NCBI GenBank assembly: GCA_963842805.1
Contig: CAWJIA010000011.1
Coordinates: 23,649 to 87,648 of the forward strand
Source of the DNA: an uncultured Chloroflexia bacterium
GTDB lineage: Bacteria > Chloroflexota > Dehalococcoidia > GIF9 > UBA5629
Length of the DNA: 64,000 nucleotides
Direction: 5' to 3'
Shown here piece by piece: positions 49,970 through 64,000 of this stretch. The notes below the pieces were generated by a model. It made no database searches, had not been told where the DNA came from, and was given only the letters and a program-made list of their open reading frames with translations. Both the position numbers and the translations under genes were made by a program. Position 1 is the first letter of the stretch. Every line of letters starts with the position of its first letter.

Positions 49970-51181
49970 TTGAGTTTCCAAAATTTCAATCTCCATCCTA
50001 GCATCATGGCCGGCGTAGAGGCAGCTGGTTACACAACGCCCACGCCCATCCAGATGCAGGCCATCCCCCCGATTATGCAGGGCCGCGATATCATAGGCCT
50101 GGCGCAAACCGGGACGGGCAAAACGGCGGCTTTCCTGCTGCCCGCAATGCACCGCCTGTTGCAGCTTCCCAGGGGCAAGATAGGAGCCCTTATCATTTCT
50201 CCCACGCGTGAGCTTGCCGAGCAAACCTGCGAGGCAATCGACGACCTGGGCAAGAAAACCGGTTTAAAAAGCATAGCCATTTATGGCGGCGTCGGTATGG
50301 ACCAGCAGGTGCGCAGGCTGCGCAGCGGCGTAGAGATAGCTGTTGCCTGCCCGGGCCGGCTCCTGGACCACATCTGGAAGGGGACGATAGACCTGTCCAA
50401 ACTGGATATACTGATAATCGACGAGGCCGACCGCATGTTCGACATGGGGTTCCTTCCCGATATAAAAAGCATCCTGAAATGCGTGATGGAGCGGCGTCAG
50501 ACGCTGCTCTTTTCAGCCACTATGCCGGCGGATATCCGCAGGTTAGTGAAGGACACATTACGCAACCCGGTCACTATTCAAATCGGGCAATCGGCACCTG
50601 CCGACACCGTTTCGCACGCGGTATATCCGGTCAAGCAGCATTTAAAAACCTCCCTGCTGATCGAGTTCCTGCGGCAGAATGAAACCGACTCCGTGCTGGT
50701 ATTCACACGCACTAAGCGCCGCGCAGACCGCGTTGCCATGCAGTTGGAGAGGGCCGGCTTCCACGTGGCGCAAATACACAGTGATTTAGCCCAGAACAGG
50801 CGCCAGGCCGCGCTGGATTCGTTCCGTTCCGGATCAGTTAAAATCCTGGTAGCGACCGACATTGCCGCCCGCGGCATCGATGTCCTGAGCATTTCACACG
50901 TAATCAACTACGATATGCCGGAGAGCGTTGATGCCTATACACACCGCATAGGCCGTACGGGCCGGGTGGAACAAAAGGGCATTGCGTTGACTCTTGTTAC
51001 GCATGAAGATGCTTCCCTGATACGTGACATTGAGAACGTGCTGAATGCGCCGCTGGAGCGCATGACACTGGACGGTTTCAACTACTTGGTTCCTGCGCCT
51101 GCTATGACAGCCAGGCCGGCTGTTAACCGGTCCAACGGCCGACGCCCTTTCAGGAACCATGTTACGAGCGGGCGCAGATAG
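49970..51181 (+). CDS. DEAD-box ATP-dependent RNA helicase
   Basis: Q-motif (TPTPIQ), Walker A AQTGTGKT, DEAD (IIDEADRM), SAT, HRIGRTGR. Confidence 0.9.
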   Translation: MSFQNFNLHPSIMAGVEAAGYTTPTPIQMQAIPPIMQGRDIIGLAQTGTGKTAAFLLPAMHRLLQLPRGKIGALIISPTRELAEQTCEAIDDLGKKTGLKSIAIYGGVGMDQQVRRLRSGVEIAVACPGRLLDHIWKGTIDLSKLDILIIDEADRMFDMGFLPDIKSILKCVMERRQTLLFSATMPADIRRLVKDTLRNPVTIQIGQSAPADTVSHAVYPVKQHLKTSLLIEFLRQNETDSVLVFTRTKRRADRVAMQLERAGFHVAQIHSDLAQNRRQAALDSFRSGSVKILVATDIAARGIDVLSISHVINYDMPESVDAYTHRIGRTGRVEQKGIALTLVTHEDASLIRDIENVLNAPLERMTLDGFNYLVPAPAMTARPAVNRSNGRRPFRNHVTSGRR

Positions 51182-52810
51182 TTATCGATGTCCGGTTAAT
51201 AAAGTATTATTAGTTGAGCGTAATCGGATTGATGCATTCGCCGGATTGATCTTATATAACACTCGTTGAATATTTGGGACTCGAACAATTACGTATTTCG
51301 ATGCTCTTCCACGCTGCCTTCGCTTGTCTGTGCAAAGGCAAGTCTAAACATTTTGGGGTCAATTACAAATTCTTTTCCCGTACAACGGATCCAATCATTG
51401 ACCGCTTCTATCACGCCAAAGAGCATACCCGCATATCCCTGTATATAGGCCTCATTCACCTTATACATCCGTAGCAAGTTGGGCACTTGATGTGCCGAAA
51501 AATCCCCAAAATCGGCAACAACATATTTATCGCCTGTCAGGCGACTCAAAAGCAGATATCTTTGCAACTGATCTGAAGCTGGAGCGGACTTCCCACCTGG
51601 TAAAGTGACCTTTTGTAAGAGTTGGGGCCGGTCGCTGTTTCATATTACGCCCGCAATAGTTGAGGAGCATATTTTACGTAATGGCCTGGAAGAAGAGGAC
51701 GAAGATGCCCCCAATTTCTAGCGTAGATGTACAACAGATGAGTTGCTAAGATGTCTACTCTCGAATTTGTCATCGCAGCCCGTATTACGATCAAAGGGGG
51801 CAAAGGGTAAAATGCAAGGATACAAGGATATATTCCTGGAAAAGAGGGTAGGGAAAAATTAAAAAACGATCAAAAGGGCTAAAATGATTTTTAATATCTC
51901 CGTACCCCCTTTTATGGCAAGTATATCCTTGTATCCTTGTAAGCCACTCTCAGCCCACGATCGACAAGGATATCCCTTTTCGGCAAAATGATATCCCTGT
52001 CGATCCTTGTATCCTTGCATGTAAACAAATGTTTTGGGCTGGCAAAAAGATAGACTTAACGGATGAGTTACCCGTCAGATACTTCTGATAAAAGTACCGG
52101 TTTGAAGCTAATCTGCAGATGGAACGGTACTTCTTCCCTAGCAAAGTGATCTTGTGGAAGCTGACTTCCCACCTGGCAACGTCCCGAATCCGGAAACTGT
52201 GCGAGGGGTGGTAGGGTCGATGGACTGACCCACAGCCAGCAGACTATCAGGCTGGCAGGTAGCAGCGTGACAGGCACTATCCGGTTATGTTGGAGATGAG
52301 GGAGGCCCCGCCTACATCATACCATTCATTCTTCAGCTACTGATACAAAGAAGAGTGTTGGCTGTTAGGTTCAACGCGGGAGGATGATATGACTGATCTG
52401 AAATGTTCAAACTGCGACTGTAACACACCGCCGGATGCCGCCAGGCGTCCAAATTGCGAACGATACGCAAAGGGAGAGATAGGATGTCTCCGAAGAATAA
52501 TGTGAATAGCCTCGTCTTAACAAAGTGTGGCATGATAACGGCAACATGCAGACTTTAGTAGTATTCAATAATTTGATTATATATTAGATAACTATATTTG
52601 ATTATGTCGTGTAAATAAGAGTATTTTCAACAAATAAAAATGCTGGCGGAGGAAACTTGACAGATAATTCTATGTAGTTATACTATTTGTACTGAATGAT
52701 ACTAATGTTATGGCAATATGGTAGTTTCGACAATTTTAGCGAGTAAGCTTCATAGATAGCTCCATATAACGCCAAGATTCAAACTGAATGAAACTAATGT
52801 TGGGGACATA
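51182..52810. repeat. 1.6-kb repeat-dense non-coding region (direct repeats and CAAGGATA-type inverted-repeat cluster); possible decayed mobile element/MITE or regulatory array
   Basis: ~37-bp direct repeats gcaA(C/A)(T/G)TGATCT..GAAGCTG..GACTTCCCACCTGG at 51564-51600 and 52141-52176; perfect 18-bp inverted repeats CAAGGATACAAGGATATA at 51815-51832 and 51922-51939 with third inverted copy at 52002-52020; no convincing ORF. Confidence 0.5.
52657..52801 (+). promoter_or_regulatory. Putative promoter (TTGACA-16-TATACT) and two 19-bp direct repeats (ACTGAATGAWACTAATGTT) upstream of the TetR-GRE operon
   Basis: TTGACA 52657-52662, TATACT 52679-52684; repeats at 52691-52709 and 52783-52801 (1 mismatch), the second ending 9 bp before the GTG start of the TetR gene. 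Confidence 0.4.
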
Positions 52811-54004
52811 GTGATCGAACGCAAACGGGCTCCGATGCTGACCAGGCAGAATATTCTAAACGCTGCTTCCAGAGGAATGGCCCAGAATGGATACGAGGGT
52901 TCTAAGTTGAACGAAATTGCGCAAGAAGCAGGCGCGACAGAACCAACTATTTATCTGCATTTTAAAGGAAAGGAGAGTCTGTTGTTCTCTGTTGCTGAGG
53001 AACATATGGCTAGATACCTCCTTTTCCTTAACGAACACGAACAGGGGATCATCGGCGCTCATGACAAATTACGTAAACTTGTCTGGGCCCACCTGCGATA
53101 CAGCGATATAGACACAGAATTTATGCGTCTAGTTCTGTTTGACTGTAGAAACAACCGGAATTTTTATGAATCTGATGCCTACAAGCTGGTTCGTAAGTAT
53201 TCTGGAATTCTATCGTCCATTCTCGACGAAGGTATCAGGGAGAAAGTTTTCAGGTCGGACATGAACGTACCGCTGGTTCGGGACATTATTTTTGGCCTCA
53301 TGGATTACGAGGCGATCCAATATTTTGTAAGCAAAGAAAAGCCTAATGCTGTTTTGGACCTGGAAGATATTATGCAACTTCTCGATCAAATGCTTTTGCG
53401 CAAATACCAAATGGAAGATCAGCCTGCGGATAAAAGACAACGTATTCTTCAAGCAGCAGTCCAAGCTTTTGCCGAGAACGGATATGCCAAGGCGACCATT
53501 GCGGAGATCGCCCACGAGGCTGGTGTGGCGGACGGAACAGTTTATGAGTATTTCAAAAATAAGGAAGATGTTCTAGTCTATATTGCGGAAGAACGTTTCG
53601 CAGGACACCTAGAACAACTTAAACAGACTTTCAGCGGTAACACCCCTAGAAAGCTGTGGCTTTTAATGCTGAACCATTTTCAGCAGTATCTGGATGATCC
53701 GAATTTTGCCGTAGTCTTCTTAACCATGATTCAGTTTAACCGCCGTTTTTATCAATCACGCGCGTACATAAGCCAGCACAACTACGTGATCGAACTTGAA
53801 AAACTGATACAGGAAATCATCAATGAGGGAAGTCTGCAGAATATTAATATCAGGGTTTTTGGAAATATGTTTTTAGGAGCATTTAGCCATATGGCACTCC
53901 GGTGGTTTCTGGTAGATCGTGATCGAAATTTTGACAAGATGGCAGAAATCAAGGAGGTTGCTATACTTTTTTCAGATGCATTATCTCCCAAATTTAATTT
54001 ATAG
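52811..54004 (+). CDS. Tandem double TetR-family transcriptional regulator (two complete TetR HTH + ligand-binding modules in one polypeptide)
   Basis: 397 aa; two TetR_N HTH segments: ILNAASRGMAQNGYEGSKLNEIAQEAGATEPTIYLHFKGKESLL and ILQAAVQAFAENGYAKATIAEIAHEAGVADGTVYEYFKNKEDVL; GTG start. Confidence 0.8.
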   Translation: MIERKRAPMLTRQNILNAASRGMAQNGYEGSKLNEIAQEAGATEPTIYLHFKGKESLLFSVAEEHMARYLLFLNEHEQGIIGAHDKLRKLVWAHLRYSDIDTEFMRLVLFDCRNNRNFYESDAYKLVRKYSGILSSILDEGIREKVFRSDMNVPLVRDIIFGLMDYEAIQYFVSKEKPNAVLDLEDIMQLLDQMLLRKYQMEDQPADKRQRILQAAVQAFAENGYAKATIAEIAHEAGVADGTVYEYFKNKEDVLVYIAEERFAGHLEQLKQTFSGNTPRKLWLLMLNHFQQYLDDPNFAVVFLTMIQFNRRFYQSRAYISQHNYVIELEKLIQEIINEGSLQNINIRVFGNMFLGAFSHMALRWFLVDRDRNFDKMAEIKEVAILFSDALSPKFNL

Positions 54005-54041
54005 GACACTATCATAAAATGCTTAAAAGGGAAGAAATAAG

Positions 54042-56459
54042 ATGACAGTAGCGAAATCCAAAAAGGTTGAACACTTGGCTGAAAAGATCAGTATTAAGGC
54101 AGTACGCAACATTCGCAGGGGCCAGGAGATTGAAGAGGGGCAGGGGATTTATCGACCCGGTGTAAAGGTTTGCCCAGAGAGGAATGGTCTGCTGACCGAG
54201 TCCTATAAAACGACCGAAGGTGAACCGGCCGTGATTCGGCAGGCCAAGGCGCTTGAACATATACTCCTTAATATGACCATATATATTCGTGACTGGGATA
54301 AAATAGTAGGAAATTATGCATCATCGCCGGATGCAGTCTTCTGGCCGATTGAGCAGAACTGGAAGTCGGTGCACAGGCTGCTCCATGGTGAGGGAAGGTC
54401 TCTAATTGATGATGCGGGCAGAGAGAAACTCGACAGGCTTGTCGAGTATTGGGACGGAAAGGCGGTAAGTGATATAAGGAAAAGGGCGTTTGGCGGTTCC
54501 CCGGATCTTGAAAAGTACTGGAGATATGAAGGTACCATGTTATGGTCGCAATGGTCAGACCAGGGCGTGCCGAACTATGACAAAGTAATCAGCACCGGAC
54601 TTAATGCGATTATTAGAAAAGCAGAAGAAAGACTTAAGGAGTTAGGAACAAGCCTTCCTTCTGATTATATTCAGCAAAAGGATTTTCTGGAGGCAGTAAT
54701 CATTGCCCTGAGAGCAGCAATAAAATGGGCTGAGAGATACGCTATAAAGGCAGAGGAATTGGCGACAAAAGAGGAGGACAAGAAGAGGAAAAAGGAGCTC
54801 GAGGAAATTGCTCGTATCTGCAGAAAAGTTCCAGCAAACCCGGCATCTACCTTCCAGGAAGCTCTCCAGTCCTTCATTTTTACACACCTTATCGGGCATC
54901 AGATTGAATTTATCACCCTTGGATGCGGCCTCCGATTTGACATGACCCTGGAACCCTTTTTCCAGAAGGATATCGCCGAGGGTAAAATCACCAGAGATGA
55001 AGCGATTGAGCTGATTAAACACACCCGGATCCACCTTGAAGAGCTTGGCCAGATGTACTCCCCGACCACCACACAGGTTTACGGGGGGGTCCAGGTTCTC
55101 CAGTCCATTGTCATTGGCGGTGTTGACTCCGAGGGAAGGGATGTTACTGGAGAGACAAGCTACATGATCCTCAATTCTGTCCTGGAATTGCCAACCCTGC
55201 AACCGAGCATTGTCTTAAGAGTTCATGACGGTACTCCCAAAGAACTTATCCTCAAGGCGATCGATGTTATCAAGACAGGTGTCGGCTATCCGTCCCTTCA
55301 GAATGACAAGGCGCTTATTCCTCTGATGATGAAATGGAACTGCCCTCTCGAAGATGCAAGAAATTACACCATAAGCGGGTGCGTTTACCTTGATGTTCCC
55401 GGCAAGAATATTCTGCGCCGGAACGCAACCTACTTTTCTCTGCCCAAGTGCCTATGGTGGGCACTTCACCAGGGAGTCAATCCCAAAAACGGAGAGCAAT
55501 ATGGAGCCGCTACAAAGGATCCAGCCTACTTTGAATCTATTGATGATGTGATGGATGCCTACATTGAGCAGGTTAGATTCTTCATGGATAAACAGGTCAA
55601 AGTGGAAAATATCACAAGAGCCATATATGCCGAACGGTATCCGCGACCCTTTGAATCTGCATTGACCGATGGCTGTATTGAGCGCGGTCAGGATATGAGA
55701 AAGTGGCGATATCAGGGACGTGTCGAGAGTTTTTCAATATCCGTGGGGTTGACCAATGTGGCTGATTCGCTGGCGGCTATAAAGAATGTAGTGTTTGCTG
55801 AAAGAAGAGTAACCATGAAGCAACTGATCGAAATCATGGACAAAAACTGGGAAGGGCATGAGGAGTTACGTCTGATAATGCTGGCAGCACCCAAATTTGG
55901 GAATGACGATGATTATGTAGACATGATCGCCAACGACTTACATCATCGGACGGAAGAGGTGGTCGAACAGTTCTCAGATATTTATGGCTCCGCTTTTCAC
56001 CTAGATGGGAGTGCGGTTTCCGCCAGCTACGGCCTGTCTCTTGACACCCCAGCCACGCCGGACGGAAGAAAAGACGGAGACGGGTTTGCGGATGGGTCCA
56101 TCTCACCAATGCTTGGGATGGATGTCAACGGGCCGACCGCCGTACTGAAATCCTGCTCGAAGATAGATACACTCAAGACCTATAATCATCTGCTGAACCA
56201 GAAGTTTCTTCCCCAGTTTCTGGAAGGGAAAAACAGGGAAATCTTTTACTACTATATCAAGTCATGGGTCGATTTTGGAATCCCTCATATCCAGTTCAAC
56301 GTGATAGACAGGGAAACACTTCTTGATGCCCAAAAACACCCTGAAAAGCACAGCAACCTAATTGTAAGGGTTGCCGGGTACAGTGCCTATTTTGTAGATC
56401 TTTCCACAGGGCTCCAGGACCATATAATCGAAAGGACCGAGCAGGCGTTTGCAGGGTAA
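54042..56459 (+). CDS. Glycyl radical enzyme (PFL/glycerol-dehydratase superfamily), paralog 1
   Basis: 805 aa; C-terminal glycyl radical signature LIVRVAGYSAYFVDL; single-Cys loop ISGCVYLDVPGKN; ~55-60% identity to downstream paralogs. Confidence 0.85.
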   Translation: MTVAKSKKVEHLAEKISIKAVRNIRRGQEIEEGQGIYRPGVKVCPERNGLLTESYKTTEGEPAVIRQAKALEHILLNMTIYIRDWDKIVGNYASSPDAVFWPIEQNWKSVHRLLHGEGRSLIDDAGREKLDRLVEYWDGKAVSDIRKRAFGGSPDLEKYWRYEGTMLWSQWSDQGVPNYDKVISTGLNAIIRKAEERLKELGTSLPSDYIQQKDFLEAVIIALRAAIKWAERYAIKAEELATKEEDKKRKKELEEIARICRKVPANPASTFQEALQSFIFTHLIGHQIEFITLGCGLRFDMTLEPFFQKDIAEGKITRDEAIELIKHTRIHLEELGQMYSPTTTQVYGGVQVLQSIVIGGVDSEGRDVTGETSYMILNSVLELPTLQPSIVLRVHDGTPKELILKAIDVIKTGVGYPSLQNDKALIPLMMKWNCPLEDARNYTISGCVYLDVPGKNILRRNATYFSLPKCLWWALHQGVNPKNGEQYGAATKDPAYFESIDDVMDAYIEQVRFFMDKQVKVENITRAIYAERYPRPFESALTDGCIERGQDMRKWRYQGRVESFSISVGLTNVADSLAAIKNVVFAERRVTMKQLIEIMDKNWEGHEELRLIMLAAPKFGNDDDYVDMIANDLHHRTEEVVEQFSDIYGSAFHLDGSAVSASYGLSLDTPATPDGRKDGDGFADGSISPMLGMDVNGPTAVLKSCSKIDTLKTYNHLLNQKFLPQFLEGKNREIFYYYIKSWVDFGIPHIQFNVIDRETLLDAQKHPEKHSNLIVRVAGYSAYFVDLSTGLQDHIIERTEQAFAG

Positions 56460-56482: not shown

Positions 56483-57406
56483 ATGAGTTTTAACAACTCT
56501 GACAACAATAGCAAAGGGTTGGTATTCAACATCCAGAAGTATTCTCTTGATGACGGCCCTGGAATCAGAACGACGGTCTTTATGAAGGGATGTTCCCTGG
56601 CCTGCAAGTGGTGCAGTAATCCGGAATCAATAAATCGGAATCAAGAGACCATGACCCGTAACCTGAGATGTATCGCATGCGGAAAATGTGCGGCGGCCTG
56701 TCCAATTGTGGCGATCGCCTTTACAGACGGACACAGGGAAATAAACTGGGAGAGGTGCAACAACTGCCTTGAATGTGCCAGGGTATGCCCGGCAAAGGCT
56801 ATTGAATCTATCGGGCATTACATGACCGTGGAAGAAGTAATGAAAAAGGTAGAAGCTGACCGGACATTCTATGAAAATTCAAACGGCGGAATGACAATAT
56901 CGGGCGGTGAACCACTTGTTCAGCCGAAATTTGTCAGAGACCTGTTTAAAAATTGTCGGGAAAAAGGAATCCATACCACCTTAGACACCACCAGCAACGC
57001 ACCGTGGCAGGACATAGAGAACGTCCTCGAGTATGTTGACCTTGTTCTTCAGGATATCAAGCACATGGACACAGGGATGCATAAGAAAGGCACAGGTGTC
57101 GGGAATAAGCTTATACTTGAAAATGCCAAAAAAATCGCTATGCGGAAGAGGATATGGATTAGGATACCGCTTATCCCGGGGTTCAATGATTCGGAAGTAA
57201 ACATAAAAAAGACTGCTGAATTGGGATTAGATATAGGTGTGGAAAAAGTATCGCTGCTGCCATACCACGAGCTGGGGGCATCCAAATATCCGGCGCTAGG
57301 CCGGGTCTATCCGATGCAGGGAACCAAGCCTCCTGAGAAGAAAGTTATAGAAAAGATCAGAAAGACAATGGAATCATATGGGTTGAAGGTTGAAATCGGG
57401 AGGTAA
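56483..57406 (+). CDS. Glycyl-radical-enzyme activating enzyme (radical SAM, with ferredoxin-like insert)
   Basis: 307 aa; GIRTTVFMKGCSLACKWCSNPE radical-SAM CxxxCxxC, additional CIACGKCAAACP and CNNCLECARVCP clusters, GGEPL motif. Confidence 0.9.
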   Translation: MSFNNSDNNSKGLVFNIQKYSLDDGPGIRTTVFMKGCSLACKWCSNPESINRNQETMTRNLRCIACGKCAAACPIVAIAFTDGHREINWERCNNCLECARVCPAKAIESIGHYMTVEEVMKKVEADRTFYENSNGGMTISGGEPLVQPKFVRDLFKNCREKGIHTTLDTTSNAPWQDIENVLEYVDLVLQDIKHMDTGMHKKGTGVGNKLILENAKKIAMRKRIWIRIPLIPGFNDSEVNIKKTAELGLDIGVEKVSLLPYHELGASKYPALGRVYPMQGTKPPEKKVIEKIRKTMESYGLKVEIGR

Positions 57407-59919: not shown

Positions 59920-62361
59920 ATGAGTAGAGTAATGACTGAAAAAAGCACCGGGACACCGTGGCCGGAGCTTAGTGACGATCTCCGCATGCTCAGACAGAAT
60001 GTCTCGATCAAGGTGTCCAGGAATGTTCGGCAGGGATACCAGAAAGATGAGCACAAACGGGGCATGTACCGGTCAAGCATCAAACTGAATGTGGAAAGGA
60101 ATCGCCTTTTGACCGAATCATACAAGGCTACGGAAAGCGAACCAATGGTCCTGCGGCGGGCAAAGGCCCTGGCGCATATCCTAAGGAATATGAGTATATT
60201 CATTGTCCCGAACTCCCGTATTGTTGGCCACTCCGGGTCAACACCAAACGATCTTTATTATCCCATAGAGGTGAACTGGAAATCTGCCTGGCGGGCCATG
60301 AATTCGGATGACGCTCGCGAGATCCTGGATGATGAGGGACGCGCCGAGATGGAGAAAATTGTTGAATACTGGAAAGGCAAGACCCTGAGTGACCTGCGCA
60401 AAAATGCCTTCAAGGGAGACCTGGAAAAATACTTCACATATGAAGGAACATTCCTCTGGTCCCACTGGGACGAACTGGGAATTCCCAACTATGAAAAACT
60501 GTTGACAAAAGGGATCAACGGAATAAAGAAGGAAGCTGAAGAAAAACTAAAGAAGGTAATAGCATCGATTCCCGATGACTACCTTGAGCAGTGTGAATTT
60601 TTAGAAGCTGTTATCATCAGCTTGGAGGCAACAATCGATTTTGCCCGAAGGTATGCTAAAAAGGCAAAGGAGATTGCCAAAAGTGAAAAAAATGGGGCAT
60701 GGAAAAGGCAGCTTGAGCAGATTGCGGAAGTCTGCCGCCGAGTACCTGCTGAGCCAGCAACTACTTACTACGAAGCTCTGCAGTCCTTTTGGTTTATCAA
60801 CCTGATCACCAGACAGATCGAGCTTGTGAGCCTCGGATGCGGCGCCAGGTTTGATGCCCTCTTTGGTCCGTACTATCAGAATGATCTTGCCGAGGGCAGA
60901 ATTACCAGGGAAGAGGCGCTTGAGCTAATGGAGCATCTTTTGTTGAAGTTTGAGGAGTCGGGGATGTGGTATTCACCACTGGTCACCGGTATTTATGGCG
61001 GTGTCCAGCAGCTCCAAGGAATCACCCTGGGCGGTATTGACGAAAACGGACATGATGTCACCAATGACATAACATATATAACCCTTGAGGCTGCCAGAAA
61101 GCTTTACATCCTTCAACCGACCATCGCCCTGAGGGTGCACAAAAACACTCCCAAGGAACTTCTTGCAGCAGCCACGGACGTCATAAGAACCGGAGTCGGG
61201 TATCCCTCCCTGTTTAATGACGAGGCACTGATTCCTCTCCTGCATGAATGGAAGGTTGCTGAAAAGGACATCTATAATTACTCCGTCAGCGGATGCGTTT
61301 ATCTTGACGTCCCCGGTAAAAACCTGGTTCGCAGGGCATCAGGCTATTTTGTACTTCCGAAATGTCTGTGGTGGGCTCTGCACCGGGGCGTTAATCCAAA
61401 GACAGGCGAGCAATACGGTGCACGGACGCCTGACCCTGAAACCTTCACCGGCATCCAGGATGTTATTGAAGCGTATCTCGATCAGGTCAGATTCTTCTTC
61501 GGCAAGATGGTAAAGCTGGAGAACACCTCCAGAGGACTCTACCGGGAATATGCGCCCAGGCCTTTCCTGTCAGCCTTCCTGGACGGCTGCATAGAGCGTG
61601 GGCAGGATACAAGAAGATGGGCCTATCCCTCAAACATGAACTCCTTTAACATCATCATCGGTCCGACCAATGTGGCCGATTCCCTGGCTGCGATAAAGAA
61701 GCTGGTTTTTGATGACAAGGAATTGACCATGCGGGAGTTCATCGACATCCTGGATAAAAACTGGGAAGGTCATGAAGATCTTCGCCAGAGGGTCATAAAC
61801 CAGGTCCCCAAATTTGGCAATGATGACGACTATGTTGATCTTCTTGCCAAGGAGGTTCACGAACGTTCAGAAGCTATCTATCAGGAGTTTACCGATGAGC
61901 ACGGTGCTAAATGGAGAGGTGACGGAAGCGGCGTATCTGCGACATATGGCCTTGGACCCGGAACACCGGCCACACCCGATGGTAGAAAAGACGGCGAGCC
62001 TTTTTCCGATGCTACCCTGTCGCCAATGCTTGGCCGGGATATAAACGGCCCCACTGCCGTTCTGGCATCATGCGCCAAAATCAAACCCCTTAATCAGCTT
62101 CTGAATCAGAAGTTCCTTCCCCAGTTTCTGGATGACGAGCATAAGGAACAGTTTATCAGCTACCTCAGGTCCTGGTGCGATATGGGAGTCCCTCATATCC
62201 AGTTTAATGTCGTGGACAATGCAACCTTGAGGGATGCCCAGAAACATCCCCAAAAGTACACCAACCTGATTGTAAGAGTTGCAGGTTACAGCACCTATTT
62301 CGTGGATCTCAGCAAAGGCCTGCAGAACCATATTATTGCAAGGGCAGAACAGCAGTTTTAG
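59920..62361 (+). CDS. Glycyl radical enzyme, paralog 3 (mosaic; C-terminal ~350 aa almost identical to paralog 2)
   Basis: 813 aa; identical first 40 aa and last ~330 aa to paralog 2, divergent central region and Cys-loop cassette SGCVYLDVPGKNLVR. Confidence 0.85.
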   Translation: MSRVMTEKSTGTPWPELSDDLRMLRQNVSIKVSRNVRQGYQKDEHKRGMYRSSIKLNVERNRLLTESYKATESEPMVLRRAKALAHILRNMSIFIVPNSRIVGHSGSTPNDLYYPIEVNWKSAWRAMNSDDAREILDDEGRAEMEKIVEYWKGKTLSDLRKNAFKGDLEKYFTYEGTFLWSHWDELGIPNYEKLLTKGINGIKKEAEEKLKKVIASIPDDYLEQCEFLEAVIISLEATIDFARRYAKKAKEIAKSEKNGAWKRQLEQIAEVCRRVPAEPATTYYEALQSFWFINLITRQIELVSLGCGARFDALFGPYYQNDLAEGRITREEALELMEHLLLKFEESGMWYSPLVTGIYGGVQQLQGITLGGIDENGHDVTNDITYITLEAARKLYILQPTIALRVHKNTPKELLAAATDVIRTGVGYPSLFNDEALIPLLHEWKVAEKDIYNYSVSGCVYLDVPGKNLVRRASGYFVLPKCLWWALHRGVNPKTGEQYGARTPDPETFTGIQDVIEAYLDQVRFFFGKMVKLENTSRGLYREYAPRPFLSAFLDGCIERGQDTRRWAYPSNMNSFNIIIGPTNVADSLAAIKKLVFDDKELTMREFIDILDKNWEGHEDLRQRVINQVPKFGNDDDYVDLLAKEVHERSEAIYQEFTDEHGAKWRGDGSGVSATYGLGPGTPATPDGRKDGEPFSDATLSPMLGRDINGPTAVLASCAKIKPLNQLLNQKFLPQFLDDEHKEQFISYLRSWCDMGVPHIQFNVVDNATLRDAQKHPQKYTNLIVRVAGYSTYFVDLSKGLQNHIIARAEQQF

Positions 62362-62392: not shown

Positions 62393-64000
62393 ATGAGTAG
62401 AGTAATGACTGAAAAAAGCACCGGGACACCGTGGCCGGAGCTTAGTGACGATCTCCGCATGCTCAGACAGAATGTCTCGATCAAGGTGTCCAGGAATGTT
62501 CGGCAGGGGTATGAGAAAGATGAGCACAAACGGGGTATGTACAGAACAAGCATCAAGCTGAATGTTGTAAGGAATCGCCTTTTGACCGAATCATACAAGG
62601 CTACGGAAGGCGAACCAATGGTCCTGCGGCGGGCAAAGGCCCTGGCCCACATCCTGAGAAATCTGCCTGTTTATATTACGCCCCACGAGCGCATTGTCGG
62701 CCATTCAGGAGCAACCCCGGACGATCTTTTCTACCCCATAGAGGTGAACTGGAAATCTGCCTGGCGGGCCATGAACTCCGATGACGCTCGCGAGATCCTG
62801 GATGATGAGGGACGCGCCGAGATGGAGAAGATTGTTGAATACTGGAAAGGCAAGACCCTGAGTGACCTGCACAAGAATGCCTTTAAGGGAGACCTGGAAA
62901 AATACTTCAAGTTTGAAGGAACATTCCTCTGGTCTCTGTTTGACTCAGGGTCCATCCCTAATTATGAAAGGCTGTTCAAAATTGGCCTGAAAGGTCTCAG
63001 AAAAGAGGCAGAGGAAAGGCTTCAGGAAGTGATTGACACCATTCCTGATAATTACCTTGAACAGCATGATTTTTTGCAGGGCGTTTTGATCACTCTGGAT
63101 GCAGCAGTGGATTTTGCCCGAAGATATGCGGAAAGAGCAAGAGAGGACGCTGCCAAGGAGAATGATCCAAAAAGGAAGAAGGAGCTTGAGCAGATCGCCA
63201 GAATTTGTGACCGGGTGCCTGAAAATCCGGCACAAACCCTGCACGAGGCCCTTCAGTTCTTCTGGTTTATTACCCTGATTAAGGGGCAGATGGAGTTCGC
63301 CAACCTCGGAGGCGGCGGACGGTTTGACCTTCTCTTTTATCCGCTCTATAAGAAGGAGCTTTCCAAAGGAAAGATCACCAGACGGGAAGCCATTGAACTG
63401 TTGCAGCACCTGTTCGTACATTTCGAGGAGTCGGGGGAGTGGTTTTCTCCCATGATCACCGGTATCTATGGAGGTGTCCAGCAGCTTGAGGGAATCACCC
63501 TGGGCGGTATTGACGAAAACGGACATGATGTCACCAATGATATGACATATATATGCCTTGAAGCAGCTAAGGGCCTCCGTCAGCTTCAGCCGACCATCGC
63601 CCTGAGGGTGCACAAAAACACTCCCAAGGAACTTCTTGCAGCAGCCACGGACGTCATAAGAACCGGAGTCGGGTATCCCTCCCTGTTTAATGACGAGGCA
63701 CTGATTCCTCTCATAAATAAATGGGGTACCCCCCTGAAGGACGCCAGAAATTATCATGTACCCGGTTGTGTGTACCTTGATATTCCCGGGAAAAACAATA
63801 ATGCAAGGCGTGCATCAGGCTATTTTGTACTTCCGAAATGTCTGTGGTGGGCTCTGCACCGGGGCGTTAATCCAAAGACAGGCGAGCAATACGGTGCACG
63901 GACGCCTGACCCTGAAACCTTCACCGGCATCCAGGATGTTATTGAAGCGTATCTCGATCAGGTCAGATTCTTCTTCGGCAAGATGGTAAAGCTGGAGAAC
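62393..64000 (+). CDS. Glycyl radical enzyme, paralog 4 (5' partial, runs off window end; mosaic of paralog 2 with a distinct cassette)
   Basis: open frame from ATG 62393 to window end; nearly identical to paralog 2 except LHKNAFK, WSLFDSGSIP, and the segment MEFANLGGGGRFDLLFYPLYKKELSKGKITRREAIELLQ; Cys loop PGCVYLDIPGKNNN. Confidence 0.8.
   Translation, partial: MSRVMTEKSTGTPWPELSDDLRMLRQNVSIKVSRNVRQGYEKDEHKRGMYRTSIKLNVVRNRLLTESYKATEGEPMVLRRAKALAHILRNLPVYITPHERIVGHSGATPDDLFYPIEVNWKSAWRAMNSDDAREILDDEGRAEMEKIVEYWKGKTLSDLHKNAFKGDLEKYFKFEGTFLWSLFDSGSIPNYERLFKIGLKGLRKEAEERLQEVIDTIPDNYLEQHDFLQGVLITLDAAVDFARRYAERAREDAAKENDPKRKKELEQIARICDRVPENPAQTLHEALQFFWFITLIKGQMEFANLGGGGRFDLLFYPLYKKELSKGKITRREAIELLQHLFVHFEESGEWFSPMITGIYGGVQQLEGITLGGIDENGHDVTNDMTYICLEAAKGLRQLQPTIALRVHKNTPKELLAAATDVIRTGVGYPSLFNDEALIPLINKWGTPLKDARNYHVPGCVYLDIPGKNNNARRASGYFVLPKCLWWALHRGVNPKTGEQYGARTPDPETFTGIQDVIEAYLDQVRFFFGKMVKLEN

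Follow-up and report, generated by a model that had tools for sequence, protein, structure and literature searches.

Only one natural double TetR has been characterised, the TetR-family regulator Mce3R (Rv1963c) of Mycobacterium tuberculosis. Its single chain contains two non-identical helix-turn-helix (HTH) motifs and binds a non-palindromic site of 25 bp. Its two sites lie 53 bp apart; the protein has one ligand domain, is autoregulated and controls lipid-related genes (PMC11667970). A study of 2013 noted over 200 homologues in actinomycetes (PMC3711444), and the type was regarded as an actinomycete family. A second related system is FadR of the Bacillus type, i.e., YsiA, a homodimeric sensor of acyl-coenzyme A (acyl-CoA) with solved structures (PDB 1VI0, 3WHB/3WHC, 5GP9/5GPC). 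The operator of Bacillus halodurans FadR is GATGAATGAATACTCATTCAT, in which each FadR monomer reads ATGA(A/G)T; in the complex, Gly42 hydrogen-bonds the G of the half-site and Tyr45 contacts thymines (PMC5397183). Here, a natural double TetR gene was analysed in a DNA stretch of 64,000 nucleotides (the window) from an uncultured Chloroflexia bacterium of the Dehalococcoidia (contig CAWJIA010000011.1, positions 23,649 to 87,648 of the forward strand). The gene stands at the head of an operon of glycyl radical enzyme (GRE) genes. Its product is quite probably a self-repressing, single-chain, pseudo-dimeric TetR-family repressor, which acts on asymmetric operators and is released by a ligand. It represents a second, apparently independent and widespread lineage of the known single-chain double TetR type, in anaerobes.

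The regulator and its upstream region comprise the following features, with coordinates in the window. Related loci are designated by L and a number.

52657 to 52662, plus strand: -35 hexamer TTGACA, kept upstream of the operator in L004-L010 and L108
52679 to 52684, plus strand: -10 hexamer TATACT after a 16-nt spacer; orthologues carry a TGC-TAnnAT-type -10 at the same place
52691 to 52709, plus strand: putative operator O1, ACTGAATGATACTAATGTT, beginning 7 nt past the -10, i.e., about +1 to +19 of the predicted transcript
52749 to 52776, plus strand: decayed promoter copy (TTCATA ... CGCCAA), in the second copy of a cassette of about 92 bp
52783 to 52801, plus strand: putative operator O2, ACTGAATGAAACTAATGTT, abutting GGGGA and ending 9 nt ahead of the GTG
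52802 to 52806, plus strand: probable ribosome-binding site GGGGA; GGGG(A/C) precedes an equally placed ATG in L001, L004 and L108
52811 to 54004, plus strand: double TetR open reading frame (ORF), GTG start, 397 amino acids, stop included
52811 to 53410, plus strand: module 1, residues 1-200, HTH at about residues 33-50, recognition helix ATEPTIY
53411 to 54004, plus strand: module 2, residues 201-397, HTH at about residues 230-247, recognition helix VADGTVY

An earlier note on this DNA had described a 397-residue chain with two full TetR modules, preceded by a plausible sigma-70 promoter and by two 19-bp direct repeats, one just after the -10 and one abutting the start codon. All of these were recovered. 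Two TetR_N (PF00440) and two TetR_C_4 (YsiA-like) stretches were found by Pfam in the protein. The TetR_N total was 105 bits against a cut-off of 24, and each HTH is followed by an all-helical C-terminal ligand-binding/dimerisation domain, as expected of the TetR family. Compared with each other, the two modules show 33% identity (E 2e-22). Among solved structures, each comes nearest to Bacillus FadR/YsiA, module 1 with E 1e-19 (FadR of Bacillus subtilis) and module 2 with E 3e-24. The top family match was the NCBIfam FadR model (NF053878), whose 214.4 bits against a cut-off of 200 are summed over two stretches; the best stretch, module 2, covers model positions 3-188 of 190. The double TetR is best classified as a fusion and not as a FadR equivalog. 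It probably arose when a Bacillus-type FadR/YsiA-like module was duplicated in tandem and the two copies were fused.

The promoter at 52657-52684 agrees with the sigma-70 consensus at 11 of 12 positions. Promoter-like sites as a class were not enriched in the region (7 found, 5.9 expected), and the promoter in the window was given weight because it is conserved in orthologues. The two 19-mers, O1 and O2, are identical at 18 of 19 positions. They were missed by a general repeat finder at two settings, and were seen in the raw sequence and by pattern search. At up to 3 mismatches they are the sole two matches in the window, where 0.02 were expected, and two or more matches occurred in 0 of 100 shuffles.

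Compared with Mce3R, the protein has the same plan, i.e., one chain of about 400 residues, two TetR modules and two non-identical HTH motifs. Its two sites also lie tens of bp apart, 73 bp here and 53 bp in Mce3R, although each site is about 19 bp long instead of 25 bp. Sequence similarity to Mce3R, however, is restricted to the HTH (E 4e-8 with the single sequence, 1e-14 with a profile). Both modules match the N-terminal HTH of Mce3R (residues about 9-68), so that the two chains show no collinear homology. The modules here are clear paralogues (33%), and each is much nearer to single-module FadR than to Mce3R, whereas the halves of Mce3R are weakly alike and resemble Fad35R and KstR2. The hosts are anaerobic Dehalococcoidia and Thermodesulfobacteriota, and the proposed target is a GRE operon. 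The simpler reading is that this looks like an independent fusion that converged on the Mce3R architecture.

In engineered single-chain TetR (scTetR), two TetR units are covalently linked, and the heads can be made different. The present protein is like such synthetic tandem TetR fusions in having two linked TetR units whose heads can differ and can address asymmetric or hybrid operators (PMC3711444). Those fusions are laboratory constructs, whereas a natural and widespread family is found here, in which the divergence of head and arm is apparently evolutionary.

The comparison with FadR shows where the two modules part. A FadR chain holds a single module; the chains form homodimers, and a palindrome is read by a dimer of such dimers, whereas the modules here are fused. 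In module 2, Gly242 and Tyr245 correspond to the base-contacting Gly42 and Tyr45 of FadR. In module 1, Pro45 stands at the position equivalent to Gly42, and the tyrosine is retained as Tyr48. The left arm and centre of the site (CTGAATGA.TACT; TGAATGA.TACT) resemble the FadR box, but the right arm is not FadR-like (top strand ACTAA, bottom strand TTAGT). The arms are 3 bp apart against 4 in FadR. The site is thus TGAAT-N3-ACTAA, i.e., an asymmetric site and not the palindromic box of FadR; palindromes were seen only in relatives of the serine type.

The protein and the site co-vary. In 80 loci, 350 nt upstream were searched. Where module 1 carries the proline, the asymmetric form TGAAY-N3-RYTAA was found in 10 of 15 loci and the palindrome in none of the 15. 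Without the proline (mostly serine), the palindrome TGAAY-N3-RTTCA was found in 15 of 65 loci and the asymmetric form in 2 of 65. As a control, both strands of the remaining 833 kb of locus sequence contained the palindrome twice and the asymmetric pattern 12 times, i.e., both motifs are about 150-350 times enriched upstream. Module 2 stays FadR-like across the family. The two right arms differ at the base that Gly42 contacts in FadR. We infer that module 2 would read the left arm, TGAAT, and module 1 the right arm, ACTAA. The asymmetric operator that the earlier note had imagined for a single-chain TetR is supported by the FadR-like left arm, by this covariation of the right arm with the module 1 residue and by the precedent of Mce3R.

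The site is conserved in relatives of the operon. The pattern AAACTGAATGAnACTAAWGTT follows the TTGACA/-10 promoter in L004, L005, L006, L007, L008, L009 and L108. The loci keeping the site have 69-85% protein identity, and their intergenic DNA has otherwise largely diverged. In L010, GRE paralogues are split off, and promoter and site stand before the GRE gene so separated. In L015, regulator and GRE1 are divergent, and the site has the orientation of GRE1. The information profile is a sharply bounded block of about 20 bp, in which TGAA (positions 3-6), A (11) and TAA (13-15) are invariant, positions 7 and 12 are nearly invariant and the central position 10 is uninformative. The persistence of this core beside the promoter in diverged intergenic regions supports the reading of the repeats as operators, as had been proposed; the conserved asymmetric site is very probably the operator of the double TetR.

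The site is also exclusive. The earlier note had proposed a search for the repeat elsewhere in the genome; a weight-matrix scan covered the window and 1.05 Mb of related loci. O1 scores 30.4 bits, and every match of at least 17 bits stood in front of a double TetR or GRE gene belonging to the close clade. Besides O1 and O2, no site above 13 bits was found in the window, save a weak inverted one at 52551. The clade-specific matrix loses significance in relatives below about 48% identity, and a separate pattern test was used for palindromic sites. An exact-pattern scan of a metagenome collection gave 39 contigs, of which 13 (14 sites) have a double TetR-GRE operon directly downstream in the same orientation. 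The 26 contigs without a double TetR were considered as a wider regulon and rejected as chance; they are low in GC, lack promoter context and include several mutual duplicates. In L084, a homologue of 50% identity heads an ABC-transporter/AMP-ligase operon and is preceded by the cassette TTGACT...TACTAT...AACTGAACGCCACTAAAC. This cassette without GREs indicates that the site travels with the regulator and not with the GREs.

It is unlikely that a different regulator binds the conserved site, or that the site is an RNA-level element of the 5' leader. Such a reading would suit the position of both copies downstream of the predicted transcription start and their single orientation relative to the transcribed genes. 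However, the double TetR is the only gene common to the GRE loci and the L084 transporter locus carrying the cassette. The match of left arm and centre to the operator of FadR, the closest characterised relative, and the covariation of the right arm with the recognition helix of the double TetR also argue for the double TetR as the binding protein. The idea of an RNA element was dropped, since no Rfam match was found in 51100-54100 and folding of the leader did not exceed that of shuffled sequence (z = 0.03).

Several further operator-like sequences were seen. The weak inverted copy, ATTGAATACTACTAAAGTC, lies at 52551-52569 on the minus strand, 122 nt upstream of O1, and scores 18.9 bits (20.3 in L001). 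Outside the window it was seen in L001-L003 alone, and since the entire intergenic region of these loci is about 90% identical to that of the window, its conservation is uninformative. It stands just downstream of a promoter-like match on the minus strand (TTGAAA at 52630 ... CATAAT at 52601), and its possible roles are those of a third site or of a site for divergent transcription. The -35/-10 spacers of L005-L010, L015 and L084 (e.g., L006 at about 355-362) contain a conserved TTTAGT(G/C), the reverse complement of the right-arm core ACTAAA. This may be an extra inverted half-site within the promoter; in the window and L004, the spacer has TTCTATGTA in its place. The leaders of L005-L008, which have no O2, share a conserved element, ATTGCGAGTTCATCAATGTTGATTCCATAC, about 25-60 nt ahead of the double TetR start. 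Within it is AATGTTG, which forms the right end of the operator motif; the element is perhaps the remnant of a half-site, perhaps something separate. L014, L016 and L085, of the proline type with 48-50% identity, have two asymmetric sites in opposite orientations, e.g., TGAATGTCATTAA / TGAACCTGATTAA on opposite strands, which suggests paired, oppositely oriented operators.

The fold of the regulator was predicted with AlphaFold2, as the earlier note had advised, from an alignment of 102 sequences. The two-module model had a predicted local distance difference test score (pLDDT) of 87.4 and a predicted template modelling score (pTM) of 0.81. In a Foldseek search against PDB, Mce3R (9B7Y) ranked first with 402 aligned columns, and it was the only solved structure matching both modules. 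Each half of the model superposes on FadR with a template modelling (TM) score of 0.87-0.88. From the model, an intramolecular pseudo-dimer is probable, in which the two modules would pack like the subunits of a TetR dimer. It is unlikely that the chain holds two independent regulators, each module pairing with the same module of a second chain, with dual input and output as proposed for synthetic tandem TetRs. This arrangement was raised for natural tandem TetRs before the structure of Mce3R was solved (PMC3711444), and the roughly equal conservation of both ligand-binding domains would agree with it. However, the structure of Mce3R turned out to be an intramolecular pseudo-dimer, and the present model has a high pTM and superposes on it over both modules. 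The operator is also a single bipartite block of about 19 bp, which fits one HTH pair.

The two repeats are the conserved cores of a decayed tandem duplication of about 92 bp, comprising promoter, operator and ribosome-binding site. A self-comparison of the region, shifted by 92 nt, gave 28 identical positions in the 61 nt that precede the cores (28/61, about 46%), against 16.3 +/- 3.3 at other offsets. The duplicated cassette is plainer in L004 and L104, where it measures about 99 bp. There, copy 1 has a good promoter and a relic GGGG..ATG, and copy 2 has a decayed promoter with a working ribosome-binding site and start codon. L108 has one cassette only, its site lying downstream of the -10 and upstream of the ribosome-binding site, and this arrangement is probably ancestral. 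O2 was found in none but the closest relatives, i.e., L001-L004, L102, L103, L104, L114, L118 and L121.

With the 19-mers in register inside the duplicated cassette, a single cassette in L108 and O2 only in the closest relatives, the repeats could be taken for functionless leftovers of a recent duplication of the leader. This is very improbable. Identity is 18/19 in the core but only about 46% in the flanks, and the selective keeping of the 19-mer in both copies while the flanks decayed argues for function. O1 is moreover kept at 69-79%, and even at 50%, protein identity despite little other shared intergenic sequence, and the conserved block is sharp-edged.

The fusion itself is widespread. 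A homology search of public proteins listed 355 matches down to 44% identity, the top ones about 400 residues long. In a scan of one genome per species, at least 408 loci with a relative were found. Most of the hosts are Thermodesulfobacteriota, including the cultured Desulfatibacillum alkenivorans, Desulfonema magnum and Desulfosarcina cetonica. Across 102 aligned homologues, conservation extends to both DNA-binding domains and to both ligand-binding domains, the latter about equally in the two modules, and a ten-residue linker is the most variable segment. The start codon is GTG in the window and ATG at the equivalent place in close relatives. The earlier note had named a frameshift hiding two separate TetR genes as what would overturn its reading, and an assembly or sequencing error of this kind can be dismissed: its sole hint is a sequence-identical database entry, P0005, annotated as 340 residues with a later start, whereas the same fusion of about 400 residues recurs in assemblies made independently from many samples and phyla, its two conserved modules are joined in frame by a variable linker, and the AlphaFold2 model is confident through the junction (pTM 0.81).

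Taken as a single-chain repressor, the protein would work as follows. One chain would bind one site of about 19 bp, with the HTH of module 2 on the FadR-like left arm TGAAT and that of module 1 on the altered right arm ACTAA. A chain on O1 would cover the transcription start of its own promoter (about +1 to +19), and a chain on O2 would touch the ribosome-binding site. Initiation or early elongation would be blocked, which would give negative autoregulation together with control of the four GRE paralogues and the activase. A small ligand in one or both FadR-like pockets would then release the repressor from DNA.

The best guess for this ligand is an acyl-CoA or a related hydrophobic acid derivative, because the pockets are FadR-like and members of the family at 45-50% identity adjoin beta-oxidation and acyl-CoA ligase genes (thiolase, MaoC hydratase, acyl-CoA dehydrogenase and AMP-ligase). 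The earlier note had suggested the substrate or product of the GRE as effector. This was neither supported nor contradicted, and the evidence here points to an acyl-CoA-like ligand. Arg117 and other pocket residues were also used to ask which of the modules keeps a FadR-like pocket, and no claim is made, since HMMER and the internal alignment differ by two positions in that loop.

Several points weigh against the proposed repressor and its asymmetric reading of DNA. The interface between the modules is deduced from the pTM and the superposition on Mce3R, for which the Foldseek TM score is only 0.54-0.56. The proline clade is probably monophyletic, so that the Fisher p of 1e-7 for the covariation is overstated and may reflect one evolutionary event. 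The palindrome was present within 350 nt in only 15 of the 65 loci without proline. Instead of a pseudo-palindrome, a direct repeat, ACT(G)AATG ... ACTAATG, can be seen in the site. O2 stems from the duplication and is restricted to one clade, which makes its function less certain than that of O1. For the ligand, the FadR pocket residues align ambiguously and the operon has no CoA-related gene within the window.

A plausible history, which we hold a little short of probable, can be outlined for the regulator and its site. After the single-chain fusion, Asp-Ser of module 1, at the position contacting the G of the half-site, would have become Glu-Pro, and the palindromic TGAAY-N3-RTTCA would have become the oriented TGAAY-N3-ACTAA, which was then duplicated with the promoter. 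If this is true, the family is a natural experiment in the breaking of operator symmetry, in which one head was free to change after fusion. The ligand of the regulator would in addition hint at the substrate or pathway of the uncharacterised multi-GRE operon that is served by one activase. The series from palindromic to asymmetric sites, co-varying with one residue of the recognition helix, makes rules of DNA specificity for TetR heads testable. It could also provide compact, oriented and asymmetric operator/repressor pairs for synthetic biology. The repressor and its operator could become a biosensor for finding the inducer of GREs that have no assigned substrate.

The genes downstream of the double TetR are as follows.

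54042 to 56459, plus strand: GRE1, a glycyl radical enzyme of the PFL2/glycerol-dehydratase family, 37-nt gap after the double TetR, proposed first regulated gene
56483 to 57406, plus strand: GRE-activating radical S-adenosylmethionine (SAM) enzyme, TIGR02494, 354 bits
57390 to 59888, plus strand: GRE2, a paralogue, whose listed TTG start overlaps the activase end by 17 nt (57390-57406)
59920 to 62361, plus strand: GRE3, a GRE paralogue
62393 to 64000, plus strand: fourth GRE paralogue, cut by the window end, frame open from the ATG at 62393

The operon comprises at least four paralogous GREs and one activase. The GRE1-type enzyme is 52-58% identical in amino acids to GRE2/GRE3, and the fourth GRE has 77-78% nucleotide identity to GRE3-like genes of L004 and L108. 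The true start of GRE2 is probably about 15-35 codons downstream of the listed TTG, because alignments of orthologues begin at residues 13-35. Against curated equivalog models, the GREs missed every cut-off, and their nearest solved relatives are glycerol and propanediol dehydratases. The gene order double TetR, GRE1, activase, GRE is kept in every close relative, and together with the 37-nt gap this agrees with the place at the head of the GRE operon that had been given to the regulator. A literature search on GRE, Dehalococcoidia and TetR found nothing on the GRE operon. A minus-strand ORF at 62945-63757, of 270 residues and without a Pfam match, is probably a spurious antisense frame.

Upstream of the promoter, about 1.5 kb (51182-52640) separate it from a DEAD-box helicase gene. 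No convincing ORF and no Rfam match were found in this stretch. It contains an exact 18-nt inverted repeat, ATGCAAGGATACAAGGAT, at 51812-51829 and 52003-52020, and short CAAGGATA tandem units. Only its last 350 nt or so (from 52291) are common to the close relative L001.

Double TetR homologues of 36-40% identity were also found in divergent arrangement beside a different GRE, in L050, L060, L063, L069, L075, L076, L079, L080 and L082. A double TetR is therefore linked to a GRE in a second and remote clade as well. Distant GRE-linked homologues occur in Desulfonema magnum, Desulfosarcina cetonica, Desulfobacula and others. The GRE at distant loci is about 33% identical to the GREs of the window, and most of these loci have two activase-like matches. 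At several of the distant GRE-linked loci, a palindromic TGAAT-N3-ATTCA lies between the genes.

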